Source: a virus. From it: DNA of 13,840 nt. Location of the stretch: UHGV virus genome UHGV-0179107; one strand, given 5' to 3'. Numbering within the stretch: the first letter of the stretch is position 1; the number at the start of each line of letters is the position of its first letter. Made by a program: the position numbers and the translations under genes. The notes beneath the pieces were generated by a model. That model saw nothing but the letters and a program-made list of their open reading frames with translations, ran no database searches and had not been told where the DNA came from. This document shows positions 1-13,840 of this stretch, in pieces.

Positions 1-432
1 CTGAGCAACCAGAGAGCCATCAAACATGCTGCTGATTCGTGCACTGTTGGCCCCTACACGTGCTTTTCTGTGCTGAACATCTCCAACACTACGATCTAAC
101 AGTTTTTGTTGTCTGGCGGCCTCTCTGGCTTGCTGCTGATAGAACTTGCGCATAGAGTTAAGTTCGGAATTGTTGCCCCCGGTCAGACGGCTGACAGCCT
201 GAGCACGTTGTTTCTTCTGTGCTCTGGCGATCTGCTCTTCCACCTTAGCGCGTGTTCTTTGTGTTCTGAGTACAGCCTGATTAGACTTAAAATCAGCTTT
301 AGCAATATCGTCGGTGGCTTTCTTCCAGGATTTTTTATAATCCTCAAGCCGTTTAACCTCTCTACGCCAGGAGGATTTATCAGAATCCCAGTAAATAACG
401 TTTGTTAGTCTGGCTACTTCCTTCATTGCCAT
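1..432 (-). CDS. Hypothetical coiled-coil-rich protein, N-terminal 144 codons only; gene continues past the window start
   Basis: Hand translation of the reverse complement gives an open frame from ATG 432-430 (MAMKEVARLTNVIYWDSDKSSWRREVKRLEDYKK...GSLVAQ) to position 1 with no stop. GAGG lies 6 nt upstream of the ATG, and the ATG is 1 nt after the TAA of the upstream gene. Not in the ORF track because it has no stop in the window. Overlapping plus-strand ORF 106..408 is low-complexity and judged spurious. Confidence 0.5.
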   Translation of the reverse strand, partial: MAMKEVARLTNVIYWDSDKSSWRREVKRLEDYKKSWKKATDDIAKADFKSNQAVLRTQRTRAKVEEQIARAQKKQRAQAVSRLTGGNNSELNSMRKFYQQQAREAARQQKLLDRSVGDVQHRKARVGANSARISSMFDGSLVAQ

Positions 433-433
433 T

Positions 434-670
434 TTATACCTCGCCTTGTCTTAAAGATTTTGATAATGAAATAGCCCTTTTCAGGGCCTCTTTATCAATA
501 TTATATTTCTCTGCCAGCTCTTCGATTGAGAGGCCTTCTGTGTGGGATCCACTTTTAATAATGGTGGACCCCTCTTTCGCTGACTCTGGCAGGTGACATA
601 CTGTCACCCCTTCGGGCGTGTCTTCGGAGTCCTTAACCAGTTTTTGATAAATCTTTTCGTAGGTATTCAT
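434..670 (-). CDS. Small protein (78 aa) with a probable helix-turn-helix near the C-terminus
   Basis: ORF track; ATG 670-668 sits 1 nt after the TGA of the upstream gene (translational coupling). The segment LSIEELAEKYNIDKEALKRAI looks HTH-like by eye. Function not recognised. Confidence 0.55.
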   Translation of the reverse strand: MNTYEKIYQKLVKDSEDTPEGVTVCHLPESAKEGSTIIKSGSHTEGLSIEELAEKYNIDKEALKRAISLSKSLRQGEV

Positions 671-671
671 A

Positions 672-1061
672 TCATTTACCTTTACGCTTCAGTGGGCACT
701 TATCTCCCACAGACCATACAAAAATATAATGGCGCTTGCTTTCAGCTTTAGGATTTAATAATTCTTTATGCAAATATCCGGCTGAAAGCATTTTATCGAT
801 CAGGTTTTTCACTCTTTGCCCTTCCTCAAATGTTTGTGCTTTAAAATAGAGATTTGGGAAGTTCTGACCTGTATATTTTCCATCTTCATATAAGCGGGTG
901 CATACCCAGCGACATAAATCATCATCGTTAAGATCACTAACGTGTGGTTTATCCTCACTGCTAAATAACGCCTGTTTAAAACGGGAGTATTTAAACTCCC
1001 CATCTTCCAGGAAATCACCCTCATCGAACTCAACTATCATTTCTTCAATATTCATAGGCAT
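672..1061 (-). CDS. Hypothetical protein (129 aa), acidic N-terminus
   Basis: ORF track. AAGGA is only 1-2 nt from the ATG at 1061, so the second in-frame ATG at 1055 (spacing about 7) may be the true start. No family recognised. Confidence 0.55.
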   Translation of the reverse strand: MPMNIEEMIVEFDEGDFLEDGEFKYSRFKQALFSSEDKPHVSDLNDDDLCRWVCTRLYEDGKYTGQNFPNLYFKAQTFEEGQRVKNLIDKMLSAGYLHKELLNPKAESKRHYIFVWSVGDKCPLKRKGK

Positions 1062-1080
1062 ATCCTTTTAGATAAACGTG

Positions 1081-1122
1081 AAAAGTAAGATAAATAAAGG
1101 CACCCCCATTTTTTGAGGGTGC
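1081..1122 (-). terminator. Candidate intrinsic terminator or attenuator inside the leftward operon
   Basis: On the minus strand, a GC-rich 6-bp stem (GCACCC / GGGTGC, plus 1100-1105 and 1117-1122) starts 7 nt after the TGA of the 147-aa gene and is followed by UUUAUUUAUCUUACUUUU. The stem is short, so strength is uncertain. Confidence 0.4.
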
Positions 1123-1129
1123 TTATTAA

Positions 1130-1573
1130 TCATTCAAGATTGACCAGTTTGAGAGGCTTCACCGCCTGCAGCATGGCCTGCATCATTCCTACGCTTATTT
1201 CGAAGAGGTCTGCCATGTTTTGAAGGCTGGCACCTTCTGCCTCAATCATTGATTTGGAGAGCGCCGCGATCACGAATCCATCCTTGGCGTTATCCCACAT
1301 GCTGAGGAGGGGATCATCTCCGTGCTGGCGCATAAGGTCTTGAATCATCCACAATCTACATGCCATAACCACCAAATCGACATAAAAAACATCACCATTG
1401 GCGGACTTGCATTCAGCAAAAGCGTGATGCCTGTGTTTTAAGAAGTGCTCTTTGTCACGGGTAAATGCCAGGGTGTTGGTAAACTTGCCATCTAAAAGAT
1501 CCTGGCGAACTTTTGAATCTTCAGCGTCGATAGCTTTGATAACCTGGGATAATAATTTAGCGATTTGAGACAT
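1130..1573 (-). CDS. Hypothetical protein (147 aa)
   Basis: ORF track; AGGA 8 nt upstream of ATG 1573-1571. No family recognised. Confidence 0.6.
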   Translation of the reverse strand: MSQIAKLLSQVIKAIDAEDSKVRQDLLDGKFTNTLAFTRDKEHFLKHRHHAFAECKSANGDVFYVDLVVMACRLWMIQDLMRQHGDDPLLSMWDNAKDGFVIAALSKSMIEAEGASLQNMADLFEISVGMMQAMLQAVKPLKLVNLE

Positions 1574-1593
1574 TTGGAATTCCTTAAATTAGA

Positions 1594-1671
1594 GCCCCGG
1601 AAGGGGTTAAACTCGTGCAAGTAGCCCTCGTCTCGAGGGTGTTAAAGTGAGTCGAAAATAAATAAATAAAT
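1594..1671 (-). promoter_or_regulatory. Intergenic element inside the operon: two short GC hairpins plus an (AAAT)4 tract
   Basis: Seen directly: CCCC-GGAA-GGGG (1595-1606), CCCTCG-TCT-CGAGGG (1625-1639) and (AAAT)x4 (1656-1671), all within the 112-nt spacer between the 162-aa and 147-aa genes. Role (mRNA processing, stability or attenuation) is unknown. Confidence 0.3.
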
Positions 1672-1685
1672 CGAAGAGATAAAAC

Positions 1686-2174
1686 TTAGGCTTTCTGGGC
1701 CATTGCTTTCTGGACTTTATTTCTATGGCGGCGGTAGATGAATATAAATTCGCGATAAGCACGACTACCGGGCTTAGGCAAACGTTGATTAAGCTCCTTA
1801 CGTGGCAGGATTTCACTCAACAAGCCCCATATATGAAAGCAGGTTACTTTTAATTCTTTTGCTATCTCTTCAATATTCATCCCACAATTCCACATTAAAA
1901 GAGATTTGCGGCGGCGATCTTCGAAGACATTTTTATCTCTATCTATGTCGTTATAGACACTGAGGGGAACTCGACACCGTGGATTCCAGGACTCATTATA
2001 TAGTTTTTGGACTTTCTCAAGTTTAACGCCTGTATATTCCGCCACGAATTCAGGGGTAAAGCCCTCGACTAATAAGTGTTTAGCCTGTCGTGTTGGTTGA
2101 TCATCACTGGGAAGATATTTCTGCAGTGCTACCAGTTTTTCGAATTGAGAATCAGAAAGATTAGATTTGAACAT
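1686..2174 (-). CDS. Putative transcription regulator (162 aa) with two HTH-like segments; C-terminal part resembles Mor/C-family phage activators
   Basis: ORF track; GGAG upstream of ATG 2174-2172. The segment RKSLLMWNCGMNIEEIAKELKVTCFHIWGLL matches, from memory, the W-N-x-G-x-N...E-L-A...V-T motif of phage Mu Mor-type activators. The family call is tentative. Confidence 0.55.
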   Translation of the reverse strand: MFKSNLSDSQFEKLVALQKYLPSDDQPTRQAKHLLVEGFTPEFVAEYTGVKLEKVQKLYNESWNPRCRVPLSVYNDIDRDKNVFEDRRRKSLLMWNCGMNIEEIAKELKVTCFHIWGLLSEILPRKELNQRLPKPGSRAYREFIFIYRRHRNKVQKAMAQKA

Positions 2175-2287
2175 GATTAATTCTCCGAACGTTTAAAAGA
2201 TCAGGGCAATCAATCTAGTTCTAGTTCTATATGTAATTAGTTTATTTAGTTTATTTGGGATAACAGGGGAGGAGTAATAATCAAAAA

Positions 2288-2446
2288 TTAATAATCTTCA
2301 TCATAATCATCGTCAAATGTTCTTAACTCTGCAATATAACCGTCTTTCGCGGTATGCTCATAATATTCTTGAGTCTGTTTATCATAAGCCAAATCATCAA
2401 GATATTCTTTGCTAACAACCATATCGGTTAAATCTAAAGTTATCAT
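2288..2446 (-). CDS. Small acidic protein (52 aa), below the ORF-track length cutoff
   Basis: Hand translation: MITLDLTDMVVSKEYLDDLAYDKQTQEYYEHTAKDGYIAELRTFDDDYDEDY, with AAGGA about 8 nt upstream of ATG 2446-2444. It fills the gap between the 305-aa and 162-aa genes on the same strand. Confidence 0.35.
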   Translation of the reverse strand: MITLDLTDMVVSKEYLDDLAYDKQTQEYYEHTAKDGYIAELRTFDDDYDEDY

Positions 2447-2479
2447 AAGAGTTTTCCTTAATTAACTGAAAGGTAAAAA

Positions 2480-3397
2480 TTATTTATCAAGTAAAACCAT
2501 CTTGCCCTCTCTTAAGCGGCAATTTTGCCATGCTGGGAAGGGGTTCAATAAATCTCCGGGATTGGCTTCAGTGTCCACAATAATTTCTATCCCTTCGTTT
2601 TCTTTTAATAGATTTGCTAGACGAAAGGCTTGATCAGTAAGATGCCAATATTTAGCAGAATTCATTATTTTGCCATCAATGGTGCCTTTAATATTTTTCA
2701 TCACCTCATAGCCATAGATTTCATCACGCAATACGCTAAGTTTTACCCTTCCTTTACCTTTATATTTAGCTTTAGCTGCCAGATATGCCGCCTTTGCTTC
2801 AGAATTCGTCAGAACTGGATAACCGTAAAAATCTTTCTCACGTTTGCCAGCGTCTCTACGGCGTTCTCTGCGTTCTTTTTTAGGTTGGGAAGGGGATTGC
2901 ATTGCCTCGGGCTTTTCAGGCTGCTGTGCGGCTTGTTTTGGGGCTTCCTGAGGCTGTTCTACTTTAGCGGCAGTCTTTCCGAAAGTCTCTAAGATGCCTT
3001 CTGGAATATTTACGCCCTTCTCGATGCACATATCCAACAATTGATCAGGGGTTTTCAGCAATTCGTAATGATTAGATTTGCCTTTTTTAACAATTGAAAT
3101 AAGCCCAGCATTTTCAAGAGATTTAATAGCGCTGGCTATTTTCCCGCGATCCTTTCTGAGTTGAGTTGCCAGTTTTTGCTCTGAAATATAAATTCCCTCA
3201 CCGTTAAAATGAAAGCCCACCATTTTTCCATAAATTAACATTTCAAAGTCTGTTAAATAAAAGCGCTCTTTAACTGTTCCCGTCTTTTTATTAGAGATTG
3301 TTGTTGCTACCGGTTTATCAAAATCATACTGAATAAAGAAATCGAAAGAGGGGGTAAAAGGTGCCCCCAGTCTATTTCCTGCCATAATTTCCCCCAT
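2480..3397 (-). CDS. Putative iteron-binding replication initiator / replisome organiser (305 aa): N-terminal winged-helix domain, Q/P/E/K-rich linker, C-terminal domain
   Basis: ORF track. The N-terminal domain (KERFYLTDFEMLIYGKMVGFHF...ISEQKLATQL...AIKSLENAGLISIVKKGKSNHYEL) has the winged-helix layout of lambda-O / phage replisome-organiser type proteins, followed by a basic low-complexity linker (KKERRERRRDAGKREKD). ATG 3397 overlaps the TAA of the upstream paralog; an alternative start at 3385 gives matching MA-N N-termini in both paralogs. Confidence 0.65.
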   Translation of the reverse strand: MGEIMAGNRLGAPFTPSFDFFIQYDFDKPVATTISNKKTGTVKERFYLTDFEMLIYGKMVGFHFNGEGIYISEQKLATQLRKDRGKIASAIKSLENAGLISIVKKGKSNHYELLKTPDQLLDMCIEKGVNIPEGILETFGKTAAKVEQPQEAPKQAAQQPEKPEAMQSPSQPKKERRERRRDAGKREKDFYGYPVLTNSEAKAAYLAAKAKYKGKGRVKLSVLRDEIYGYEVMKNIKGTIDGKIMNSAKYWHLTDQAFRLANLLKENEGIEIIVDTEANPGDLLNPFPAWQNCRLREGKMVLLDK

Positions 3398-3783
3398 TAA
3401 TATATAAAATATTCTCTAATACCCTGCTCATCGCACATCTTGCCAAGCTGATCAGGGGTAATTAGCAATTCGTAGATATTCGATTTGCCCTGTTCTCGTT
3501 TAACGTTTATCAGACCTGCAGCTTCTAATGTTTTGATTGCCGACCTTACTGTTTTCTCTGTAACATCATAATCGTCTGCTAATGTCTGCGTCGAAAGCTC
3601 TGAGATAATTATTTCTTCACCCTCCTTAAAAGAATAACTTACCATTTCACCATAAATTGTTACCTCCAACAAATTTAAGTGAAATCTTTCTTTATTGGTT
3701 GCAGTTTTTGCAATCGGATTTTTAAAAGTGTATTTGATGAAACGTTTAAAAATGGGAGTAAAATTTTCATCGTTGTTTGCCAT
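3397..3783 (-). CDS. Truncated paralog of the adjacent initiator (about 128 aa): winged-helix DNA-binding domain only
   Basis: Clear paralogy with the N-terminus of the 305-aa protein (NFTPIFKRFIKYTF vs PFTPSFDFFIQYDF; GKSNIYELLITPDQLGKMCDEQG vs GKSNHYELLKTPDQLLDMCIEKG). The track start at 3798 is a TTG that overlaps the SD; ATG 3783-3781 with GGAGG 8 nt upstream is the likely start. Confidence 0.65.
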   Translation of the reverse strand: MANNDENFTPIFKRFIKYTFKNPIAKTATNKERFHLNLLEVTIYGEMVSYSFKEGEEIIISELSTQTLADDYDVTEKTVRSAIKTLEAAGLINVKREQGKSNIYELLITPDQLGKMCDEQGIREYFIY

Positions 3784-3807
3784 AATATGATCCTCCAAGA
3801 TTATTTA

Positions 3808-4017
3808 TCAAAGTAGGTGTTTATATCTTTCCAGCTCACGCTCGATGCGGATAAGGTTAAGTTTTTCTATTGCCGCTTCAATATGTGGGTATTTTCCTTT
3901 GTTACGACGGATAAAAGCATAAACAGAATTTTTATAGAACTTGCCGCTAAGCACGTTCTCTACGATTTCGTCAGTAGTCCAGTTTACCAGGGGGCTGACT
4001 GGCCCGTTGCTCGCCAT
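3808..4017 (-). CDS. Small protein (69 aa), first gene of the leftward operon
   Basis: ORF track; perfect AGGAGG (plus 4025-4030) 7 nt upstream of ATG 4017-4015. The opposite-strand ORF 3817..4077 is low-complexity and rejected. Function unknown. Confidence 0.6.
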   Translation of the reverse strand: MASNGPVSPLVNWTTDEIVENVLSGKFYKNSVYAFIRRNKGKYPHIEAAIEKLNLIRIERELERYKHLL

Positions 4018-4138
4018 AATGAGGCCTCCTATAATTCGAATCAGAATGATATACGGTTAAAAAGAAACGGGAACTAATAGCTCCCGCCAGTTAATTAAGG
4101 AAATCCACTATGATGACTTAGTGTATCCCTATGCTTTA

Positions 4139-4170
4139 TATTTTATCAGACATTCGTCAAATTGTCAACA
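4139..4170 (-). promoter_or_regulatory. Candidate sigma70 promoter for the leftward operon (-35 TTGACA, 17-nt spacer, -10 TAAAAT)
   Basis: Minus-strand reading: TGTTGACAATTTGAcgaatgtctgaTAAAAT. The first 14 nt are identical to the -35 region of the capsid promoter at 8017-8030, and the spacers are similar. About 115 nt of leader would precede ATG 4017. Confidence 0.4.
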
Positions 4171-4340
4171 ATCTTTTTGTATTTATCTATCATTTTTTCT
4201 TCAAGATTGTCGATTGCAGTCACTCCGGCTATGTAGGCAACACCGCACCACAGTACAGCCAGGTTGATGATCGCTATTGCATCAGTAATTTCCACATTGA
4301 CCTCCGGATCTGTTTCTCCCCCTATTTATAATCTTATCAT

Positions 4341-4489
4341 ATTGTCAACCAATTGTCAATGAGAATTATTATCATTTAGGTGTGCTATAGGTACAAGCAA
4401 GTCCACAGCAAAGGGGTAAGCATTATTAATGGCCCCTACCGTGTCAAAACCAAAATCACTTATAGCATTTATTCAATAAGATTGTCAAT
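4341..4489 (-). promoter_or_regulatory. Three further ATTGTCAA(C/T) sites (4341-4349, 4352-4360, 4481-4489), each a TTGACA hexamer on the minus strand
   Basis: Seen directly. With the site at 4161-4169 this makes four same-orientation copies in about 330 bp. Possible -10 elements are weak (TAAGAT, TATAAG), so these may be operators or secondary promoters. Confidence 0.35.
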
Positions 4490-4801
4490 GGCCCACAACA
4501 TGCCTTCCTGCAGAAGGTTTGATTTTAATCAAATCCACGAAGTGGACCACAGGAGGGAGAGCACTTTTTGCCTTAGGCGCTCTAAAATCAATTCTAACGC
4601 GATTTAGAGGTCAGGTAATGCAATTGCACTACTCACCACAGTTAATGCAGCCAGAAGGCCATTTAGGGGCCCTATTTTTGATTTATGAGTGTCATATTAC
4701 GTGCATGCACGCGCGGGAGACTCTTTGCTGCCTCCTTCCGGCGCTGGCAAGCTTTCGGCAGCGGTCCACATTGTGGGCCTCATGCTGACGCATTCGCCGG
4801 A

Positions 4802-4963
4802 CCCACACAGACCCGAAGGGCTTAGCCATGGGCTAAGGTGCCGTAGGCACTCCCACACACAATTGGGTGACGTGTCATGTATGGAATACATTGTCACCCC
4901 ACACACAGGCCGACGTAGTCGGTTTAGCTGTATAGCTAAAGTCACAAAGTGACCCACACACAG
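4802..4963 (+). repeat. Array of about 50-bp units, each beginning with CCCACACACAG and containing different short perfect palindromes
   Basis: Punctuation motif at 4802, 4852, 4898 and 4954. Palindromes: CTTAGCC-ATG-GGCTAAG (4821-4837), GTGCC-GTA-GGCAC (4838-4850), GGGTGAC...GTCACCC (4865-4899), CCGAC-GTA-GTCGG (4910-4922), TTAGCT-GTAT-AGCTAA (4924-4939), GTCAC-AAA-GTGAC (4941-4953). Confidence 0.6.
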
Positions 4964-4966
4964 ATT

Positions 4967-5003
4967 GCCTAAAGAGTCGCTCATGCTCTTTAGGCTTTCA
5001 TTT
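4967..5003 (+). terminator. Candidate intrinsic terminator closing the hairpin array
   Basis: Perfect 10-bp stem GCCTAAAGAG / CTCTTTAGGC (4967-4976 and 4986-4995) with a 9-nt loop, followed by TTTCATTT. The minus-strand side has no U-tract. Confidence 0.4.
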
Positions 5004-5124
5004 GTGGGTTAAGCTTTTCCCTTAGAAAACCTTCCCCACTCTCTGATCCCTCCCCATCCCCCCTTGTTGGGGGATTATAGGGGGAGTTCTTTTTATTGAT
5101 CTATTCTCTTTATCTATTAGTGTG

Positions 5125-5270
5125 GGAAATCCCAGCATATATATGTAGGAAATTCCCGCATATATATGTTGGAAATACCAGCATATCCCTTTCTGTGTAT
5201 GGTTGAATATGCGGGAAATTCCAGCATATCGATCCCTATGCATGTGGGAACATGTGGGAAATACCGACAG
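5125..5270. repeat. Iteron array, candidate replication origin: GGAAAT-N-CC-(A/C)-GCATAT repeats
   Basis: Four 16-bp copies at 5125-5140, 5148-5163, 5171-5186 and 5214-5229. The first three are spaced exactly 23 bp (about two helical turns), the fourth is 43 bp further. Degenerate copies follow (tandem CATGTGGGAA x2 at 5241-5260; GGAAATACCGACAG at 5257-5270; GGAAATATGCAGATC at 5403-5417). Confidence 0.55.
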
Positions 5271-6332
5271 GTCTGTGTGGCTTAATTTGACTTGATATTG
5301 ACTAACAAAGGCCTTCGTAGAAGGTTTGAGATGAGCTCAAATCACCATATGTGACTAACAAACCTCTCTCCTCTCTCTTTGCTTTGATTTTCTCTCATGT
5401 GTGGGAAATATGCAGATCAACACCCTTTGATTTTATCGACAGGTATGTTGACACGCCCTACGGTTGTGAGGCCCGGGCATCATAAGTATGGCCCCTGGGG
5501 CAGTCCATCCTTCCCTCACACAGGACAATGAATACACTCCTTGCAGTCATGAATACATAAAGAACATGAAAGACTGTTCACACCAACACGCCGATAAATT
5601 GCCTGAAGAGGCTTACATGGTGGGATTGTTGTGTGGGTAATAGTGATCATGCTAACAGATTATGTTAATCAGATGTAAATTCCGATTTTGTGGTCTGCAG
5701 ATAGCAAACTATACTGGTTAGATGATCAGGGGAATGACTACAAAACAATCAAAAATGTGGGATATAGACATCTATACTTCTAATGTGCTGTGTGGGGTGT
5801 TAGTGCGTCCTAACCTCTAAGTCATTGATTTTAAGTGTTGGGAGAGATGCATTTAACATAATAGATCTTATCTACACTAATAAAGCGCACTACAAAATCT
5901 GATTTAAAAATCATGATAAGGAGGCCCAGAATTTACGTACAGTCACCTGAATAAATAATGTGCACAACATACAGCAAAGCTTAAGAATTAACATAATAGC
6001 AACGTGGTCAGTAGTGGTGTGATATTTGAGAATTGTTAGAAGAAAAAAGGGAGGTGGGGGAGCGCCTGCCTGGCACCTCAGACGAACATCTGACGGGTAT
6101 TAATACCGCTAATGGATATTTCTGACACCCACACCCAAGACCGCTTTCAGCACATAGCCATACACCGCACAGGATGCAATTGTGATAACAAAAAATGGGG
6201 GTGTAATAGGGTAGGCTGTCTTTCATCAAAATCACTTCTACGACGTTACCAGAGTGATAACAAGAAAACAGGCCTCTAAGATTATCTGTGCCTCGTTTTT
6301 AGCTTTTTGTGTGGTTACCAGGTGAAGAGGAA

Positions 6333-6497
6333 ATGTTAAAAACTGTTCATTTTATGCACAAACTAGTCAGGGTGATACCACAAAATGAGGCGCAAGAAAT
6401 CCAGCTGCAGATAATCTTGCAGCCAGATTTTGCAGTTTTTGAGGGTATGTTAAATTTGACAAAAATAGAGAAAAGGCTTATTAAGATAACTTATTGA
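6333..6497 (+). CDS. Possible small ORF (54 aa from ATG 6333), weak
   Basis: ORF track 6309..6497 starts at a GTG; the internal ATG 6333 has GGTGA about 7 nt upstream. It is the only moderately plausible ORF in the 2.7-kb gap, with no recognisable family. Could be non-coding. Confidence 0.2.
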   Translation: MLKTVHFMHKLVRVIPQNEAQEIQLQIILQPDFAVFEGMLNLTKIEKRLIKITY

Positions 6498-6571
6498 TTT
6501 TATTAGTATTATGAAAAAGGGTTACACCCTCTCTCTTACTCTGTCAACCGGGCGGTTGTGGCATAAAACGG

Positions 6572-6697
6572 ATTAAATCAATAAATAGGCATTAAATACC
6601 CATTAAATACCCCTTAAATAGGGGTTAATTGCTCAGGACTGAAAGGAGTGTAAATAGGGGATAAATAGGGGTTAATTGAGGGATAAATAAAAAGGGG
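6572..6697. repeat. AT-rich direct-repeat cluster: TAAATAGGGGTTAATTG x2 plus shorter TAAATAGG and ATTAAAT copies
   Basis: 17-mer at 6615-6631 and 6662-6678 (47 bp apart); TAAATAGGGG at 6651-6660; TAAATAGG at 6582-6589; ATTAAAT at 6572, 6591 and 6603. Lies just beyond the terminator of the membrane-protein operon. Confidence 0.55.
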
Positions 6698-6710
6698 CCG
6701 TGATGGCCCC
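6681..6710 (-). terminator. Rho-independent terminator of the leftward HTH / membrane-protein operon
   Basis: Minus strand: GGGGCC-AUCAC-GGCCCC (plus 6694-6710) followed by UUUUUAUUUAU, starting 8 nt after the TGA at 6721-6719. Confidence 0.7.
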
Positions 6711-6718
6711 CTGGTAGG

Positions 6719-7237
6719 TCAGAACAGTTTTTTGCTTTTTCTCCAACTAACGCCGCGTTTGCCTATGCTCAGCCAGCCGCCAGCGAATCGGGTACCTGCG
6801 GTAACACTAGCTCCCCTGGTGCCTACATGTGCATAAATACCTGCCCCACTGCTACCACCGCTTCTACGGCTTTTTCCGCCATCGATATCGAGGAGAGCAC
6901 AGATTGCACCCCACAAAAAGCCAACCAACCAATATACATATGCTAAGCCTAAAACACCCCAGGTTACCGCCCACCCCTCTAGACTAGTGGGGAAGTAGAA
7001 AGCATTGAGAACAGCATTTATAGGACGGATCAGGAGAGAATCTATAAAACCAATATCCACATGAAACGGGCCATCACCGAACTTGCTACTGCCAATAAAC
7101 AAGGTAGCAGGGTAAAAACAGATAGCCATTAACCAAGGCCCGGCTATCAAAAACGCTGCAGTGTACTGAAAGAACATTTTTACCAGTTCTTTAAAAAGCC
7201 TTTTATTTACTGATTCTTTGTCTTTCTGGAATAACAT
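6719..7237 (-). CDS. Membrane protein (172 aa) with two predicted transmembrane helices and a Gly/Ser/Arg-rich C-terminal tail
   Basis: ORF track. Hydrophobic segments FFQYTAAFLIAGPWLMAICFYPATLFI and WAVTWGVLGLAYVYWLVGFLWGAICALL; tail GKSRRSGGSSGAGIYAHVGTRGAS...SWRKSKK. A purine-rich SD-like stretch precedes ATG 7237. No family recognised. Confidence 0.65.
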   Translation of the reverse strand: MLFQKDKESVNKRLFKELVKMFFQYTAAFLIAGPWLMAICFYPATLFIGSSKFGDGPFHVDIGFIDSLLIRPINAVLNAFYFPTSLEGWAVTWGVLGLAYVYWLVGFLWGAICALLDIDGGKSRRSGGSSGAGIYAHVGTRGASVTAGTRFAGGWLSIGKRGVSWRKSKKLF

Positions 7238-7294
7238 AGCGGTACCCCTTTGCGAGAAGTTGAATTTAGTTAATAACCTGTTGGACCGTTTACA

Positions 7295-7555
7295 TTACTT
7301 AGCTTTCTTGAATCTCCCGTCCTCCTTTCTTTCGATATTGTGGTAGTCGGCATAGGCTTTCAGCCTTCTGTGCACGGTGGCTATCCCCACACCGAAGGTT
7401 TTAGCAATAACCTGTCGTGGTGTTCCCTCCTCGACCATCTTAAACATCTGTGCCGCTACATCCATTTGTGCGGCTATCTCCATTTGCTTTGCCTTTGCTT
7501 TAACTTCAGCTATCAGCTCTTCCCTCAGTCTCCTGATATCTTTAGCCCCCGTCAT
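7295..7555 (-). CDS. Small DNA-binding protein (86 aa): N-terminal coiled coil, C-terminal resolvase/Hin-type HTH
   Basis: ORF track. The segment TPRQVIAKTFGVGIATVHRRLKAY fits the resolvase-type HTH pattern (IA...GV...TV.R.L). GAGGAG precedes ATG 7555-7553. Confidence 0.6.
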   Translation of the reverse strand: MTGAKDIRRLREELIAEVKAKAKQMEIAAQMDVAAQMFKMVEEGTPRQVIAKTFGVGIATVHRRLKAYADYHNIERKEDGRFKKAK

Positions 7556-7597
7556 AAACTCCTCTCAATGCTGTTCATAAACTCATCTCAATGATGA
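7552..7597. repeat. Tandem 23-bp duplication spanning the RBS and start codon of the HTH gene
   Basis: Plus strand TCATAAACTCCTCTCAATGCTGT (7552-7574) and TCATAAACTCATCTCAATGATGA (7575-7597). On the minus strand the upstream copy creates an 8-codon uORF (MNSIERSL) whose TGA overlaps the HTH start codon. Confidence 0.6.
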
Positions 7598-7656
7598 TTA
7601 ATACAAAATCTAAGACTACCAGACCTATTAAAAATGCTTTGCCTCCTTTGCCCATC

Positions 7657-7779
7657 TCATACCTCCACACACAGAGCTAACATCAGGGCTAACACTCCAA
7701 CCACCTCAATTGCCTTAACCATGTGTGGGTGATGAAACCTAGCCTTTTGCCATGCGCTGGCACTGTTCTTGATACCCAT
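7657..7779 (-). CDS. Possible small hydrophobic peptide (40 aa), below the ORF-track cutoff
   Basis: Hand translation: MGIKNSASAWQKARFHHPHMVKAIEVVGVLALMLALCVEV. Its 5-prime leader shares a 15-mer (plus-strand TTTGCGAGAAGTTGA at 7791-7805 and 7249-7263), within a roughly 26-nt homologous region, with the leader of the membrane-protein gene. Confidence 0.3.
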   Translation of the reverse strand: MGIKNSASAWQKARFHHPHMVKAIEVVGVLALMLALCVEV

Positions 7780-8016
7780 ATCTATAACCTTTTGCGAGAA
7801 GTTGATTTGTTTGCTCGGTTGGGTGCTATCAATGCTCCCCTTCCTTGATTCGAACTATAGCCGGGTAAATCCCCGGAAAACATTGATATTGATCAAAAGA
7901 TATCTATCACGAATGAAAAAGTTATGATAGATGCTATGAGATGACGTATTGATGGGATTGATAGAGGTCTGAAAATACCGTTACCACGCTAATTATTAGA
8001 ATTTATATAATCAGGG

Positions 8017-8047
8017 TGTTGACAATTTGAGAGAATACTGATATAAT
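8017..8047 (+). promoter_or_regulatory. Consensus sigma70 promoter upstream of the capsid genes
   Basis: TTGACA (8019-8024), 17-nt spacer, TATAAT (8042-8047), with an AT-rich UP-like tract upstream (7985-8015). The 14-mer TGTTGACAATTTGA (8017-8030) is identical to the reverse complement of 4157-4170. Confidence 0.6.
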
Positions 8048-8190
8048 ATACATATACACCGTAAATCTTTGGTGAAAGTGATTTGCCGTATTTTCCTCCA
8101 AAGTAAAGGCGACCAGGTAGCGGTGCCGCCTTATAAATAACACTACCCTGATCATCGTTGAGTGGTCGATTAATTCTCCTATTGGGCTAG

Positions 8191-8199
8191 TTATCCACA
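8191..8199 (+). promoter_or_regulatory. Perfect DnaA-box consensus TTATCCACA in the capsid leader
   Basis: Exact 9-mer seen directly. It overlaps the left arm of an 8-bp inverted repeat CCACACAG / CTGTGTGG (8195-8202 and 8221-8228). Only one copy, so a chance match is possible. Confidence 0.3.
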
Positions 8200-8366
8200 C
8201 AGTTTTCTTTTGCGGGTTTTCTGTGTGGGTAGCTATCCCGAAAGGTATTTCCCCGCTGATGTGACCGCAGCCTGAACTGATTCGGGGGAGTGCCTTTCGT
8301 GATAGTGCTCTCAAGCAACCGTAACCATGTGCTATCAGCCAACTTTGTTGGTTTTCCTCATGTGGA

Positions 8367-8396
8367 ATAGCCCCCGCTTGGACGGTGCGGGGCTAT
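8367..8396 (+). terminator. Terminator-like or attenuator hairpin in the capsid leader
   Basis: ATAGCCCC(C)GC / GCGGGGCTAT stem with one bulged C and a 9-nt loop, followed by a pyrimidine-rich but imperfect U-tract (CTCCCTCTTCTTAT). Lies between the promoter and the first capsid-module gene. Confidence 0.3.
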
Positions 8397-8525
8397 CTCC
8401 CTCTTCTTATATCAATCTCCCTTTTAATAGATTTCCGGCATAACTTTTCGGCCCGAGCCTGTCGTAGTTCTAGAGGTTATGCCGGAACTCTTTGAGGGGA
8501 GTTAATTTAAATCGCAGGTGATCAA

Positions 8526-8861
8526 ATGAGAGATATGACTATCCGCACACGCGGACACATCATTTCATACGCCGCAGATGAGCAATTCTCTATTCGTGAC
8601 GTGGAAGTGAAAAATAAAGTTAAGGCTGAGATCCCGGCCGGCACTGTTGTTGTGGTGACTGAGGCTGGCGAGGTTGAGACCTTCGTTAAAGCAACGCACA
8701 CCGGTAAAACTCCGCTGCTGGTTGTAGAACGTGCTGAGGTTGGTGATGCTTTTATCGTTGTTGCCAACAAAGGCTGTTATATCAATCCGGCCTACGTGGA
8801 TAAAGACGGCTTAGCCGCTGTTATCGCTGCCAGCAATGGCGATCTGCGTGTTGCACAATAA
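8526..8861 (+). CDS. Putative head decoration or accessory capsid protein (111 aa), immediately upstream of the major capsid gene
   Basis: ORF track; AGGTG 5 nt upstream of ATG 8526. Codon usage looks typical of highly expressed genes. Position and size parallel lambda D relative to E, but no direct sequence similarity was recognised, so the product call is positional. Confidence 0.55.
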   Translation: MRDMTIRTRGHIISYAADEQFSIRDVEVKNKVKAEIPAGTVVVVTEAGEVETFVKATHTGKTPLLVVERAEVGDAFIVVANKGCYINPAYVDKDGLAAVIAASNGDLRVAQ

Positions 8862-8872
8862 GGAGGTTGAAG

Positions 8873-9919
8873 ATGGCTAAAAAAGAATTCGAAGTTCGCG
8901 ATCTGTGTGGTCTGATTAAAGACATCCCGCTGGATAACCAGATTATTTCAGCAATGGATATCTTTAACACTACTGCTCTGTGCAATACCTTTAAATTTGA
9001 ATATGACAAAGTCCGCCAGGTGAAACAAACCGCTTTCGGTCAGTATCCGCGCTACGGTGAACAGATGGCGACCATTACCGCAGATGAGCGTGAAACGGGC
9101 ACGGGTGATATGGCATTCACTGCCGCATCCAGTGCTATTTATCCTTCTGACTGGCAGGGTATTCGTGTTCCGGGCAAAGATTCCGAAGAGAATTTAGAGT
9201 CTGTTACCGCTCGGCGTGTTATTCAGTTGGGTGAAGGCTTACGCCAGACCCATGAAGAAGCACGCCAGCTTGCTCTCTTTGAGAACAAAATTATCCTCAC
9301 CAAGGGTAAAGAACTGAATGTGTGCGAACTGCTGGGCGCACAGCAAACCACCTCGGAAGTGGATTTAGCTAAAGATATCCTTAAACAGCTGCAGGACCTG
9401 GTTGCACTGAGCAAGATTAAACAGCGTGGTGTCGTTCGCGCTCTTCGTGGTTTCACCCTGTTCTGCCGTGCTGAGCTCTTTGCTGCAATTCAGACTGATG
9501 AACTGTTGAGAAAAGTGCTGTTGTTCGGCAATCAGAATATTACCGACAAAGGTCTGATGTTCCCTGAGGATATTCTGCCGGGCTTCCCGACCTTCCGCAT
9601 TCCGGGCTTAGCCCTGCGTGTGGTGCAAATGGATAGTCTGCCAGAGAATACTGCTTATCTGGTCCCACAATTCCAGCCACATGCGTTAGGCGATATGGTG
9701 GGCGTTTATACTCAATTTTTCGGCCCTTGCGCTCGCAACTTGAAGCTTGCAAACGGCGCTGCACGTGAAGCTTTCATGTATATGGAAGAGTCCAGAGGTA
9801 AACGAGAAATCTTCATTGAATCCTCTTATGCTTTCATGAACATGATGCCTGAGGTTGTGGTTAAAGTGAGTGTTAGTAACTCCGCCGCCGCTGCTCTGGC
9901 AAAAGCCAAGGCTAAATAA
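8873..9919 (+). CDS. Major capsid protein, lambda gpE-like family (348 aa from ATG 8873)
   Basis: Track start 8867 is a TTG; ATG 8873 has a perfect AGGAGG 6 nt upstream. Size and the C-terminal LPENTAYLVP segment parallel lambda gpE (341 aa; LPDNTMVLG), recalled from memory. Confidence 0.8.
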   Translation: MAKKEFEVRDLCGLIKDIPLDNQIISAMDIFNTTALCNTFKFEYDKVRQVKQTAFGQYPRYGEQMATITADERETGTGDMAFTAASSAIYPSDWQGIRVPGKDSEENLESVTARRVIQLGEGLRQTHEEARQLALFENKIILTKGKELNVCELLGAQQTTSEVDLAKDILKQLQDLVALSKIKQRGVVRALRGFTLFCRAELFAAIQTDELLRKVLLFGNQNITDKGLMFPEDILPGFPTFRIPGLALRVVQMDSLPENTAYLVPQFQPHALGDMVGVYTQFFGPCARNLKLANGAAREAFMYMEESRGKREIFIESSYAFMNMMPEVVVKVSVSNSAAAALAKAKAK

Positions 9920-9950
9920 GGTCCTTCTTCGAAGGCCAAATAAAAGCAAA

Positions 9951-9999
9951 GGGAAGAGGTGAGAGATCGGGGATAGGTCTTTCCCTCTTCCCTTTTTTT
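9951..9999 (+). terminator. Strong rho-independent terminator after the major capsid gene
   Basis: GGGAAGAGG (9951-9959) pairs with CCTCTTCCC (9984-9992), followed by TTTTTTT (9993-9999). A small CCTTC-TTC-GAAGG hairpin (9923-9935) sits just after the stop codon. Confidence 0.7.
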
Positions 10000-10033
10000 A
10001 TTATCCCCGTCTTAAGTTTTTGAGGTGTCTTTT

Positions 10034-10285
10034 ATGAAAATTGTTTTATACGGCGACCGTGACGACGTGCCTTTTGATATTATCCATATCGATGACGAGG
10101 ATCTGCCGGAATTCCTGCGTATCTCCACATTTGCCGCCTGCTATGACGTTAGCCGCCAGGCTATGCACAAGTACCGTGAATATAATAAATGCACCTGGGC
10201 CGAGACTTTCGAACATTTTATTGCACGCAAACAAACCCAGGACCGCAAAAAAGCCCTGAATGCGCATAATCGTTTTGCAAAATAA
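10034..10285 (+). CDS. Small protein (84 aa), acidic N-terminus and a possible HTH
   Basis: Track start 10025 is a GTG; ATG 10034 has GAGGTG about 7 nt upstream. The segment LRISTFAACYDVSRQAMHKY looks HTH-like by eye. Function unknown. Confidence 0.5.
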   Translation: MKIVLYGDRDDVPFDIIHIDDEDLPEFLRISTFAACYDVSRQAMHKYREYNKCTWAETFEHFIARKQTQDRKKALNAHNRFAK

Positions 10286-10359
10286 CGATAGATAGCCCTG
10301 TCTTTTTATCAGAATTCACACAGGGCCACCAAAAGATTCAATTTGGAGGCATGTTTAAT

Positions 10360-11163
10360 ATGGCTAGTGATGCTCTGACAGCTGCAAAACAAGCTGAGTC
10401 GAGATCTCCTGCATTCACTGTTATGTGTGGGGGATATTCACAAAACAAAAATATAATGGATGGCTTCAACTATACCGATAATGTGGCTATCTTCTTTGAC
10501 TCTATCTCTGATGTCAGCTATTCGTTCCCTGTTGAGAAATCGAGCTATGCGGTCGAGGATGGCACCACCATGTCAGACCATGCCGTCATTAAAGATAAAT
10601 CTGTCAGCTTTACGGGTATTATTACCTCTTCCCCTCATATCATCCGGAAAGAGAACTACATTGACCGGAACACTGATCCAGATAATCCCCGTGAGTCTAT
10701 GCGCCCTGCTGCCGCTGTTCAGGCACTTATGGAAATGAGAGACAAGCGCCAGCTAGTCAGCCTGGTGAGTGAAGATGCCGGACTCCTTGAGAACTTCATC
10801 ATGACGAAATGTGAAGTTAAGCGTAGCTCTTCCTCTGGCGACTGCATCACTATTGATTGCACCTTTGAAGAATTCCGCACCTTCAAGGTGAAGATGGTCG
10901 AAAATGCCGGAGTCTTCACTAACAGCAAGAAGGTGAACAAAACACAGCAAAAGGGTGCTGTTAACAGTGCTAAAGAGGGTAGTAACGCTGGCAATGCTGC
11001 TACGAAATCCACCAGGGCTAAGCATCGCGGGGAATATGCACAGGGAGAGGCAGCGGGAAAGATTGCCGCAGGTGATAAGTCTGTTGTGTCGAACGAGTTC
11101 CACGAAACGATGATCGATAAGGCCAACATGTTGCTTGATGACATAACGGAGATCAATAAATGA
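10360..11163 (+). CDS. Phage morphogenesis-module protein of unknown role (267 aa), with a Lys/Ala/Gly-rich low-complexity C-terminus
   Basis: ORF track 10351..11163. GGAGG (10345-10349) is 1 nt from ATG 10351 but 10 nt from ATG 10360, so 10360 is preferred. The stop overlaps the next start (ATGA at 11160-11163). Confidence 0.55.
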   Translation: MASDALTAAKQAESRSPAFTVMCGGYSQNKNIMDGFNYTDNVAIFFDSISDVSYSFPVEKSSYAVEDGTTMSDHAVIKDKSVSFTGIITSSPHIIRKENYIDRNTDPDNPRESMRPAAAVQALMEMRDKRQLVSLVSEDAGLLENFIMTKCEVKRSSSSGDCITIDCTFEEFRTFKVKMVENAGVFTNSKKVNKTQQKGAVNSAKEGSNAGNAATKSTRAKHRGEYAQGEAAGKIAAGDKSVVSNEFHETMIDKANMLLDDITEINK

Positions 11164-11618
11164 GTCCTAAAGTCCGGTGCACCATAGACAAGCGCATGAT
11201 GGATAAGCTGCATAAAGAGCTCTCACAGATGGAAGGTGTAGCGGTTGGCTGGGATGACGGAAAGCACTATAGCGGCCTGAATTATGCCACACTGGCAGCA
11301 ATTCATTCTGAGGGGTGGGGTGATTTGCCTAAGCGCTCCTTTATGGAATCTGCACACGCTGCAATGCTCTATGAGAGCCTGAGACACACAAAAGCCCTGA
11401 TTAATGCAATCGTAAAGGGTGGAAGCTCTGAGGCCGTCAGGAAGCGAATTGGCAAGCGATACGCCGACATTTTGGAGACTATCCTGATTAGTGGGCAATT
11501 CAGCAATAACAAGGTATCCCCACAATGGGCAAGCTATAAAGGCTTCAATGATGCCATGCGCCACTATGATGATTTGATCGGTGCAATCAAATACTGGTCA
11601 AATGTGGGGAGAGGTTGA
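11160..11618 (+). CDS. Putative tail-completion / virion-morphogenesis protein (152 aa), HK97 gp10 / P2 gpS-like
   Basis: ORF track; translationally coupled to the upstream gene. The segment NYATLAAIHSEGWGDLPKRSF resembles the YA-x-IH-x-FG motif recalled for these head-tail joining families. Assignment is from memory, not a search. Confidence 0.55.
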   Translation: MSPKVRCTIDKRMMDKLHKELSQMEGVAVGWDDGKHYSGLNYATLAAIHSEGWGDLPKRSFMESAHAAMLYESLRHTKALINAIVKGGSSEAVRKRIGKRYADILETILISGQFSNNKVSPQWASYKGFNDAMRHYDDLIGAIKYWSNVGRG

Positions 11619-11959
11619 AAAAGACAATAGTGTTCTTTTGAGGCCGTAGTGATACACCACAAATCAGCCCCTTTCCACTTCTTTTTCTCGCGATTGGTCC
11701 CTTGTGAGAATCCTTTATCAGGTATGCATTGTCCCGTGCATGAGCGGTCGATAGAGCCAGCCTCTTTCCCGGACTGGTTAGGATTTAGTGCGCTGATTGA
11801 GCGCCGCTATCACTGTTAGCCTGTTTATCGTTGCCTGGTTTGTGCATCACTGCACCCCCTGGGCACCGGACCCGCCTCAAAGGTCGGATCATCACAATTG
11901 GCGGGGCGGTTTTATAGTCGCTTTAAGGTTTATAGGCCGGAGTTGACTTACCTTCCGGC

Positions 11960-12007
11960 AACCTGCTAACATTAGTCTCGCGAGAGGTTGATTTTTGTTA
12001 GCAGGTT
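11960..12007. repeat. Perfect 12-bp inverted repeat with a nested palindrome in the convergent intergenic region
   Basis: AACCTGCTAACA (11960-11971) and TGTTAGCAGGTT (11996-12007), separated by 24 nt that contain the 10-bp palindrome TCTCGCGAGA (11976-11985). Confidence 0.6.
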
Positions 12008-12036
12008 CGCCCCGCATCAAAAGGATACCGGAGAAG

Positions 12037-12067
12037 AGCCCCTTTGTTAACACTTAGGGGCTTTTTT
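12037..12067 (+). terminator. Intrinsic terminator, plus-strand orientation
   Basis: AGCCCCT (12037-12043) pairs with AGGGGCT (12056-12062) around a 12-nt loop, followed by TTTTT (12063-12067). The minus-strand side has an A-run before the stem and no U-tract after it. Confidence 0.5.
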
Positions 12068-12145
12068 CTTGCCTGGAGTTTATCCGGTTAAGCTAACTTA
12101 TTGATTTTGATCACAATATCAGTAAAGCTGCACTATCTTCCAGCA

Positions 12146-13840
12146 TTAGAAAAGCTGATTAGATTCCTGTGTGGCTTTCCAATCCAACTGATCGCTGACT
12201 TCCTTCTGGATCACCCTGGCAATTCCCCCCTCATCAATGGTTATCTCCCATTTGCCGGAGATCTCACCATGAGGCACCACATTAACCTGAGCAGGTTGAT
12301 AGCCGCCATTCTGAATAGCCGTACCCGTGCTAGGAGTAGGACGTGACGGGCTAATTGTTGGATATGGATTAAAGGAAGCTCCTTTGCTGATGTAGCTATG
12401 GTTATAGGCCCCTGGCTTGGTCATAGCATCCTGCTCATCACTGAGAAGGCCTTTAGATTTAGCCCACTCCCCGAACTGATCAGCCTTGCTTTGCATCCAT
12501 CCTCTGAACTTCTCACCTACCGTCTTAGCGCCAAGTGCGCCAGCGACACCAACACCCACACCTGCGGCACTGCCAGCGGCTAATGCTGTTGTTGGGCTTC
12601 CAGCGACTGCCCCGCCAGCACCCTTAACGAGATTGCCCAGACCTGGAATCTTGCCTATCAGAGAAATCAGTTGGGTGACAAGTGAAACAAATCCGGTTAG
12701 AGGGGAAAGCAGTGTAGTAATAACTTTCAGACCAGCTAAGCCAACCACCAGTTTTCCGATAAGCTCGCCAACCTCTGATCCGGTCATGCCGAACTCTTTA
12801 GCCTTAACCTCGATATAGCCCTTAGCGAAGCCTACCCAATACATGATCTCACGCATGGCAGCCCCGACTGCCTCACCAAACTGTTTTGCCGCGCTCCCGC
12901 TGCCGTCCATATCAGTGGTGAGGTCTTCGAAGATGGAGATTAGAGATTCAGATAAGCTAATAACGCCATCTGCAGGATCTACAACACCCATAAACTGAAT
13001 CGCCAGCTCGTTAAAGCTGTTTTTCATGCGCTGCATTGCTACTTCTGGCTGTTTCATGGATTCAGCAAAAGCTTTAGTTTCTTTTGCAGCACCCCAGATT
13101 TTCACCAGAGAAGGAAGAAGCTTGTCCAGGGTGATTTTGCCATCTTTAAGGGCTTTATCGAATTCCTGGGCATTCTTGATGATTCCGGCATCAATAGCGG
13201 CCTGTTGGAAGTCTTGTTGTGAGCCTGCAAAGGCTTCTGCCAGCTGCCCCCGCAGCTCCTCCGCCATGACTTTATTTTTTGAAGCCATTTGTTGGACCGC
13301 AACAAGCGCCCTGTTTTGTTGCTCACCAGTAGCACCCACTGAGCGGCCTTTAATAGCCATAGCCTCAAAAAGAGCCTGCTTATCAGATTCCTTCATGGTG
13401 GGGGTAGCGGCAGCAAAACGCATATAGCCGCCTTCCATCTCACGCTGATCCATCCCGTAGGTGTAGGCTGTGTTCTTGATGAAAGCCATCTGTTGGTCAG
13501 TCTTGGCTTTATCATCCTTGTTCTGGGCCATTAAACCGAAGTAGGCACTGTTGCGATCTGCAAGGCTGCTCATAGCACCACTAACAGCACGCTGAACACC
13601 CCAGCCAGCGGCAGTAAGGCCGATAGCTATCTTGCCTAAAGTGGAATTCAGTTTCCCCAGGTTGTCATGCAGCTTGGCCCCTGTGATCGCAACTTTATCC
13701 AGTCTGCTCTGGAATTTTCCGGCTTCTGCTGTTGCCATCTTCATTTCAGCTCTGAGTCGGGCCATTTTCTGATTATAGGTCTGCAGGTTGATAGCCCCTT
13801 TAGCATAATCAGCATTAACTCTCTGAATTCTGGATTGGAA
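12146..13840 (-). CDS. Tail tape measure protein, C-terminal about 564 codons; start codon lies beyond the window end
   Basis: Hand translation shows the frame is open from 13840 to the stop at 12148-12146; the track's M at 13765 is internal. Contains a TMP-core-like segment (TGEQQNRALVAVQQMASKNKVMAEELRGQLAEAF), coiled-coil N-terminal part, and a Gly/Ala-rich hydrophobic segment typical of tape measure proteins. Confidence 0.8.
   Translation of the reverse strand, partial: FQSRIQRVNADYAKGAINLQTYNQKMARLRAEMKMATAEAGKFQSRLDKVAITGAKLHDNLGKLNSTLGKIAIGLTAAGWGVQRAVSGAMSSLADRNSAYFGLMAQNKDDKAKTDQQMAFIKNTAYTYGMDQREMEGGYMRFAAATPTMKESDKQALFEAMAIKGRSVGATGEQQNRALVAVQQMASKNKVMAEELRGQLAEAFAGSQQDFQQAAIDAGIIKNAQEFDKALKDGKITLDKLLPSLVKIWGAAKETKAFAESMKQPEVAMQRMKNSFNELAIQFMGVVDPADGVISLSESLISIFEDLTTDMDGSGSAAKQFGEAVGAAMREIMYWVGFAKGYIEVKAKEFGMTGSEVGELIGKLVVGLAGLKVITTLLSPLTGFVSLVTQLISLIGKIPGLGNLVKGAGGAVAGSPTTALAAGSAAGVGVGVAGALGAKTVGEKFRGWMQSKADQFGEWAKSKGLLSDEQDAMTKPGAYNHSYISKGASFNPYPTISPSRPTPSTGTAIQNGGYQPAQVNVVPHGEISGKWEITIDEGGIARVIQKEVSDQLDWKATQESNQLF

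Follow-up and report, generated by a model that had tools for sequence, protein, structure and literature searches.

The window analysed here, a stretch of 13,840 nucleotides filed as UHGV virus genome UHGV-0179107, is in its entirety (positions 1–13840) a circular replicon of 13.8 kb that belongs to a plasmid family of E. coli, Shigella and E. albertii. In its replication (rep) operon, the gene for the full-length initiator protein Rep is preceded by a short gene encoding a stand-alone winged-helix domain, the recognition helix of which belongs to a different specificity class from that of the adjacent Rep. Because the helix class is foreign, no cognate sites are present in cis and the gene is missing from most relatives, we favour the reading in which the short gene, as an accessory gene, encodes an origin blocker acting in trans, which would be directed against sibling plasmids of other Rep/iteron specificity and to which we assign a probability of roughly 0.4. 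We infer from sequence comparison that the short protein binds DNA, which sites it would target and that the outcome would be inhibitory.

The short protein is a Rep winged-helix domain of another allelic lineage

In a BLASTP comparison, the short protein was 49% identical to Rep over 130 residues (E 2e-30), with the match confined to residues 5–129 of the longer protein; it lacks the linker and the C-terminal domain (C-domain). In the AlphaFold model of the short protein, built like that of Rep from a family alignment (mean predicted local distance difference test score, pLDDT, 62), helices and strands follow one another as they do in the N-terminal domain (N-domain) of Rep. Both proteins gave near-threshold Pfam matches to winged-helix families (HTH_36, HTH_11 and GntR, and also PaaX), and both matched PHROG families of replication initiation proteins, O-like proteins and DnaD-like loaders. 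The original prediction, made from the letters of the window, that the 128-residue protein is an independent copy of the Rep winged-helix domain is thus borne out by the pairwise alignment and by structure prediction (models at pLDDT 62–70), both of which support a shared N-domain.

The initiators of the family are mosaics in which an N-domain of allele A, B, B', C, C', D, F or G is joined to a C-domain of allele X, Y, Z or W, the last being acidic, and the window encodes an A/X Rep. With the B' N-domain of Rep from L005 and L007 (L001–L039 being labels for the relative loci compared with the window, and P-numbers denoting relative proteins), the short protein shares 84% identity, against only 54% with the Rep beside it. 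A recent tandem duplication was rejected as its origin, as the short gene is nearer to the Rep alleles of other plasmids than to the adjacent one. At the nucleotide level, the gene is itself a mosaic: its 5' part is B/B'-like, the recognition helix B'-like and the wing G-like.

Recognition helices are paired with iterons, and the cognate iterons of the short protein are absent from the window

The iteron array of the window lies 1.1 kb upstream of the rep operon. Across the relatives, the architecture of the array (23/23/43-nt spacing) is constant and its sequence shifts with the Rep allele. Helix class and iteron type corresponded one to one with zero exceptions in the 31 loci having both, and seven recognition-helix sequences mapped onto six iteron types: GKI[AV]SAIKSL onto the core GGGAAATnCC, PTVINSIKSL and PTIIKAIKSL onto GTAAAAnATTTTnAC, KTVRSAIKTL onto CGGAAATATTTACCG, RKIRDSIKSL onto CGGAGAAATCTTCCG, RKIIESIKTL onto GTGAGAAATCTTCA and KTVRTAIHSL onto CGGTAAATTTTACCG. 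The last of these pairings is also kept in L035/36, a distant relative that belongs to another element. This pairing without exception identifies the N-domain as the specificity determinant. An apparent departure from the co-variation, L003, in which a D-type Rep stands with B'-like iterons, was resolved by the extra repeats of 29–30 nt that are confined to D-type plasmids.

The recognition helix of the short protein (KTVRSAIKTLEAAGLI, 16 residues) is identical to that of the B' Rep; it begins with KTVRSAIKTL, as opposed to the class A sequence GKIASAIKSL of the adjacent Rep. The iterons of the window share the core GGGAAATnCC and are cognate to the adjacent allele-A Rep and not to the short protein. 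Iterons of the B' or G type numbered zero in the window, where a single match with three mismatches is at the level of chance (0.35 expected). The proposal that the short protein competes for the iterons of its own plasmid is not supported by this combination of a B'-class helix, A-class iterons and no B' site above chance. The D-type short genes of other plasmids repeat the pattern independently, with a foreign helix whose matching repeats are absent from the carriers: the helix of the L034 short protein is nearly equal to that of the L003 Rep and the L037 short helix equals that of the L023 Rep, and the D repeats (29–30 nt) of L003 and L023 are absent from the carriers L034, L037 and L038.

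No repeated operator specific to carriers was found in the window. This bears on a rival reading, in which the short protein would be a co-opted transcription factor that acts on structural genes, on a helper phage or on host genes, and not on origins. Winged-helix proteins that stand alone typically act as repressors, the Pfam matches are of the GntR, HTH_11 and PaaX types, sources label the short protein a 'transcription repressor', and the element has phage structural genes and may need a helper. However, the only carrier-specific sequences besides the short gene and the X region are a leader hairpin and a G/C-rich stretch beside the iterons, neither of which resembles a repeated operator; the promoters of carriers and non-carriers are identical, and the helix is still identical to that of working initiators. 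We consider a role in transcription less likely, indeed improbable.

Two further features of the arrays were observed. Plasmids with a D-type Rep contain three repeats of 29–30 nt with 33/44-nt spacing (L003, 13012–13118; L023, 2034–2139), which adjoin a retained iteron array of the B' or C type and look like a second, layered origin specificity. The arrays of L002, L003, L005, L006, L008, L011 and L037 contain single 'orphan' iterons of other classes besides 3–4 allele-specific copies, and many (not all) of them have 1–2 A-type copies (TGTGGGAAATnCCAACAGGT) at the far end.

The short gene occupies a dedicated slot and is missing from most relatives

The same 128-residue gene, including its tail, is present in L009/L010 (96% identical, beside an A/X Rep) and in L011/L012 (88% identical, beside a C/X Rep), and this B-type gene therefore adjoins two Rep N-alleles, A (window, L009) and C (L011). 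The same slot holds an E-type gene of 121 residues in L001 and L039, and a D-type gene of 164–172 residues in L016, L034, L037 and L038 (at least six clusters at 90% identity). At least three allelic types of short gene thus exist, each of which is always unlike the adjacent Rep N-domain. A private 5' leader, GGAG(G)ATCA, is common to all three types and differs from the leader of rep, and each type has its own conserved tail; these properties indicate a dedicated gene slot and not random truncation. Truncated forms of Rep also occur in the family (P0003, 173 residues; P0110; P0143).

The distribution was estimated from a neutral sample of 21 family members, made up of eight complete relatives, ten places reached through the neighbouring orf49 and three metagenome loci. 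The short gene was present in about two of the 21, so that some 90% are without it; it was missing from seven of the eight complete relatives, from all ten places sampled through orf49 and from two of the three metagenome loci. Among the labelled loci, it is absent from L002–L008, L014, L015 and L017–L033. Its candidacy as an obligatory partner of C-allele X was rejected, given that L027–L033 have an X-type Rep and no short gene. The notion of a built-in control that is a conserved component of the replicon does not hold either, as about 90% of the members replicate without it.

These data also bear on the possibility that the short protein regulates its own plasmid negatively in cis or controls its copy number, either by occupying half-sites in its own array or by forming defective mixed oligomers with the Rep N-domain. 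The short gene shares the operon with rep and directly precedes it, so that the two would be co-expressed at a fixed ratio; the N-domain resembles those of the RepA_N and DnaD families, which oligomerise; the near-palindromic iteron cores suggest binding as a dimer, of which a heterodimer would be defective; and A- and B'-type half-sites differ at a single base. Set against this, the recognition helix is of another class and its cognate array is absent in cis, the relatives without the gene include some with the same N-allele (L004) or the same C-allele (L027–L033), and a pure poison subunit needs no selection that keeps or swaps the recognition helix. The copy-control idea of the original prediction therefore agrees with the domain content and the operon position of the short gene, but not with its helix class, the lack of sites in cis or its presence in only ~2 of 21 members, and we regard regulation in cis as unlikely.

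The short genes are under purifying selection, and in one case the recognition helix was exchanged

The ratio of nonsynonymous to synonymous substitution rates (dN/dS) of the short copies was 0.16–0.18 at a dS of 0.41–0.43 (Fisher p 2e-8), a range that they share with the full-length N-domains (0.04–0.21), and the 128-residue open reading frame (ORF) was intact in three 90%-identity clusters, with zero frameshifts or stops. Such purifying selection rules out a decaying duplicate or pseudogene. It had been foreseen that the short ORF might prove to be a pseudogenised duplicate absent from relatives; most relatives do lack it, but where it is present it is conserved and under selection.

A related explanation is that the short gene is a functionless by-product of module swapping, the leftover N-terminal half of a former rep that is perhaps kept as an upstream ORF for translational coupling. 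The rep genes of the family are indeed highly mosaic, the truncated forms mentioned above do occur, and the stop codon of the upstream ORF always lies close before Rep. Selection over a dS of 0.4 without frameshifts or stops argues against it, as do the end of the gene exactly at the domain boundary, the private tails and the leader common to the three types, and the occurrence of the short gene beside two different Rep alleles; moreover, orf69/71 already supplies coupling in non-carriers. This explanation is also less likely, and we judge it very improbable.

Comparison of the short genes of L037 and L016 revealed 98–100% nucleotide identity except in the ~60 nt that code for the recognition helix, and the L037 version of this stretch matches full-length rep of L023 with 100% identity. 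Of the nine amino-acid differences between the L037 and L016 short proteins, seven lie within 20 residues (corrected p 6e-4). The identity of the helix segment in L037 and L023 shows that short genes have recombined with full-length genes of other plasmids, and the segment exchanged is, judging by the alignment, precisely the predicted DNA-reading part. A more tentative extension is that the slot is a swappable 'anti-replicon' position in which gene conversion would redirect the domain to the iterons of competing siblings, in an arms race that would drive the extreme diversification and mosaicism of Rep and iteron specificity. It would amount to a protein-based, sequence-specific exclusion between plasmids, distinct from classical incompatibility; we consider this possible but doubtful.

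A proposed model of interference between sibling plasmids

Among the functions considered, interference between plasmids by a domain of foreign specificity appears the most likely for the short gene, at the probability of about 0.4 given above. In this model, the short gene is an accessory cassette from a foreign specificity class that was inserted between orf69 and rep. The short protein would be co-expressed from the rep operon and would bind the B' (possibly G) iterons of a sibling plasmid that shares or enters the cell. As it has no linker or C-domain, it would occupy the rival origin unproductively and block replication of the rival, leaving its own A-type origin free. The attributes expected of such an anti-rival protein were found: a domain homologous to the initiator of the rival, the iteron class of the rival, and absence of the target from the carrier.

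Several points weigh against this model. No two family members were seen co-resident in one cell among the seven complete genomes, and co-occurrence of two family variants was encountered only in one metagenome sample. A GGAAAT-like half-site is common to all iteron types, which makes binding to the plasmid's own A-type iterons possible, and N-domains of the RepA_N/DnaD type oligomerise, which makes a protein–protein effect on its own Rep possible. The identity of the whole helix is only weakly above what 84% overall identity would give (0.84^16 ~ 0.06). The E-type short gene (L001/L039) could be matched to no full-length partner allele, the D-type short genes are under looser constraint (dN/dS 0.28–0.50), and the structure models are of only moderate confidence (pLDDT 62–70).

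Organisation of the rep operon

The rep operon runs leftward from a strong candidate promoter through a leader with a hairpin to orf69, the short gene, rep and further unassigned genes (Table 1). The hairpin and T-run of the leader start ~45 nt after the promoter and are kept in all relatives; they could represent an attenuator or the terminator of orf49, or could give rise to a small RNA of ~75 nt. A 32-nt inverted repeat with 84% complementarity (2437–2468 and 4088–4119) flanks orf69, the short gene and rep, and may mark the ends of an exchangeable replication cassette or be due to chance.

Table 1 Features of the window and their coordinates.
Feature	Coordinates	Strand	Description
Promoter candidate, sigma-70 type	4140..4168	(-)	TTGACA, 17 nt, TAAAAT, extended TG; kept in all relatives
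Terminator-like hairpin and T-run	4056..4088 (hairpin 4088-4066)	(-)	Between promoter and orf69
orf69	3808..4017	(-)	Conserved small gene, first in operon; no PHROG match
Shine-Dalgarno sequence of short gene	3792..3796	(-)	GGAGG, 8 nt before ATG, within the leader GGAG(G)ATCA; from sequence and junction comparison
Short gene	3397..3783	(-)	Stand-alone winged helix, 128 aa + stop, tail IREYFIY
Shine-Dalgarno-like sequence of rep	3390..3395	(-)	GGGGGA, conserved; between short-gene stop (3399-3397) and Rep start (3385)
rep	2480..3385	(-)	Full-length initiator Rep, 301 aa, ATGGCA start (MAGN...)
Rep N-domain	3011..3385	(-)	Winged-helix origin-binding domain, ~aa 1-125, allele A, recognition helix GKIASAIKSLENAGLI
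Rep linker	2843..3010	(-)	~aa 126-181, contains conserved QEAPKQAxQQ
Rep C-domain	2483..2842	(-)	Allele X, ~aa 182-301; absent from short protein
Iteron array	5121..5275	(+)	5 copies, spacing 23, 23, 43, 43 nt; four TGTGGGAAATnCCAGCATAT, one TGTGGGAAATACCGACAGGT
Major capsid protein	8867-9919		Capsid
Dit-like baseplate protein	10351-11163
Neck1/tail-completion homologue	11160-11618		Sole clear assignment in PHROG scan of ten neighbouring ORFs
Tape measure gene	spans window ends

The start of Rep was assigned by comparison. An alternative in-frame ATG at 3397 would yield a protein of 305 residues (3397 to 2480), and it is through this codon that translational coupling by a TAATG overlap had been proposed. 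The conserved ATGGCA is the Rep start in every relative, preceded by a GGGGGA or GAGGGA element; the gene caller for L009 likewise begins Rep there, and in relatives without the short gene the GGGGGA-type element comes straight after the stop codon of orf69/71. The TAATG of L011 contains an ATG that does not share the reading frame of Rep. The letters of the overlap are therefore present in the window but incidental, and TAATG was rejected as a conserved coupling device. The stop codon of the short gene lies 11 nt before the Rep start in the window, and of five carrier arrangements that were compared, four have an upstream stop 10–13 nt before it, the gap in L016 being wider.

The full-length initiator

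Rep is the sole initiator-like gene on the replicon and is probably an iteron-binding plasmid/phage initiator, its DNA-binding domain co-varying in sequence with nearby direct repeats. In the AlphaFold model, for which an alignment of the family was the input (mean pLDDT 70), the N-domain (residues 11–135) is mostly at pLDDT 70–90, residues 141–181 fall below 50 and presumably form a disordered linker, and residues 182–301 make up a folded C-domain. The N-domain consists of a winged helix with an N-terminal extension and is structurally like 4pta and 8ojj; the structure search used the whole Rep model, and its matches were dominated by the N-domain. A sequence search of the PDB with the long protein gave nothing significant.

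The N- and C-domain alleles appear, from their sequences, to recombine at the QEAPKQAxQQ linker. Searching 1.84 billion representative proteins with a profile (E <= 1e-10) retrieved only ten relatives: four full-length proteins, five with the N-domain only and one with the C-domain only (P0155). So small a number in such a collection indicates that the initiator has a narrow distribution and, at the protein level, a modular build.

In D-type initiators (L003, 10591–11502; L023, 3527–4384), a long acidic tail with DSAIPY at its end takes the place of the C-domain. A distant relative that consists of the N-domain only, P0152, ends in DDFAPLF, and the product of orf52 (2288–2446), downstream of rep, has the C-terminal end DDDYDEDY. 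These ends are similar to the C-terminal tip of SSB, and they could serve to recruit replication proteins of the host. At L013 (10001–10522), in a 40-kb contig with many small ORFs, orf71 is accompanied by a B-type Rep cut after the linker (173 residues), which suggests transfer of the rep module to a larger element of phage-like character as well.

The replicon and its relatives

Seven complete E. coli plasmids of 13.3–13.7 kb, one of them recorded as a 39.6-kb trimer, align end to end with the window at 92–95% identity. Other records of the family include a 26.7-kb multimer and a copy inside a 79-kb contig. The protein encoded by the neighbouring orf49 is indexed in 1657 collection blocks, and the plasmid family is widespread in E. 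coli. Megablast and tblastn searches of a phage collection, IMG/VR and GTDB representative genomes returned zero relatives, and a literature search by accession and keywords found no description of the plasmid family. In nr, a Rep identical to that of the window carries the name 'Caudoviricetes sp.'. The contig ERZ506993 NODE-631 (15.5 kb, containing L014 and L016) wraps the circle and has different rep modules at its two ends, one B/Y without a short gene and the other F/X with a D-type short gene; two plasmid variants therefore coexist in that one sample.

Apart from the replication genes and a few phage structural homologues (Table 1), the genes of the window are ORFs without an assigned role, and neither a terminase nor a portal gene was found in the window. 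A PHROG scan of ten neighbouring ORFs left eight without a match and revealed no P/DnaC-like loader gene near rep; orf86 (7295–7555) gave weak PHROG matches to DNA-binding families of the HTH/invertase type. The element may be a plasmid-borne phage satellite. Positions 4300–6700 (2.4 kb) contain few ORFs, the iteron array and several hairpin-like GC-rich elements, without an Rfam match, and an Rfam scan of the window as a whole gave none. Arrays of 11-nt repeats (TAAATAGGGG/TAAATACCCC) at 6582–6689 are present in most of the relatives examined. A 46-nt inverted repeat with 74% complementarity (4137–4182 and 8005–8050) has a near-consensus promoter in each arm, one directed leftward to the rep operon and the other rightward to the capsid operon.

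Implications and comparison with known systems

Plasmid incompatibility is usually viewed as a passive outcome of shared replication control. If the favoured reading is true, the short gene would represent an active, sequence-specific shutdown of the origin of a related competitor by a borrowed DNA-binding domain alone. It could explain the fast diversification and recombination of initiator and iteron specificities in the family, and matched pairs of protein and site would be usable for orthogonal replicons or for curing specific plasmids. The family itself, with its 13–14 kb and few phage structural genes, merits study in its own right.

The initiator has partial likenesses to two known groups. 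With lambda O it shares weak PHROG matches ('replication initiation O-like', E 2e-7 to 5e-6) and an N-terminal iteron-binding winged helix followed by a flexible linker and a C-terminal domain; it differs in that the iterons lie at a distance from, and not inside, the initiator gene and that no P/DnaC-like loader is nearby. Neither a Pfam Phage_rep_O match nor a tblastn match in 50,697 phage records was obtained. Compared with RepA_N/DnaD initiators (RepA of pSK41/pTZ2162, 4pta; RepA of the PLE satellite; DnaD, 8ojj and 2vn2), identity to the structures is only 11–21%, neither protein matches the Pfam RepA_N or DnaD profile, and the C-domain of Rep is unrelated at the sequence level, with no PDB sequence match.

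Antagonists that consist of a DNA-binding domain without its effector are known from papillomavirus (E2-TR and E8^E2), Tn5 (Inh), IS1 (InsA) and R6K (short forms of pi). They keep the DNA-binding or multimerisation part, lack the effector part and oppose the full-length protein; they are made from the same gene by internal starts, splicing or frameshifting, have the same specificity and act on their own element in cis. The short protein departs from all of these: its gene is separate, it comes from another allelic lineage, and the sites predicted for it do not occur in cis. The antitoxin PrpA competes with Rep at iterons and lowers replication, acting on its own plasmid. Like PrpA, the short protein would be a non-initiator at iterons, although PrpA is unrelated to it in fold and origin; binding of PrpA to plasmid iterons is cited in PMC9731233.

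The closest documented logic to that of the proposed trans-acting blocker is that of Odn (Gp88) of phage ICP1, an origin-directed nuclease that targets the iterons of the PLE satellite through a captured RepA_N-like domain (Barth, Nguyen and Seed 2021, PMC8263062). This domain is 42% identical to that of the rival and has the same iteron specificity, and Odn is thought to drive the swapping of replicon modules in its targets (PMC8263062). In both cases, the origin-binding domain of a rival initiator would have been captured on a mobile element, and the targets show swapping and diversification of their replicon modules. Odn is fused to a T5orf172 nuclease and cuts the origin, whereas the short protein stands alone and its effect would be one of occupancy; the conflict there is between phage and satellite, whereas carrier and presumed target here are sibling plasmids.

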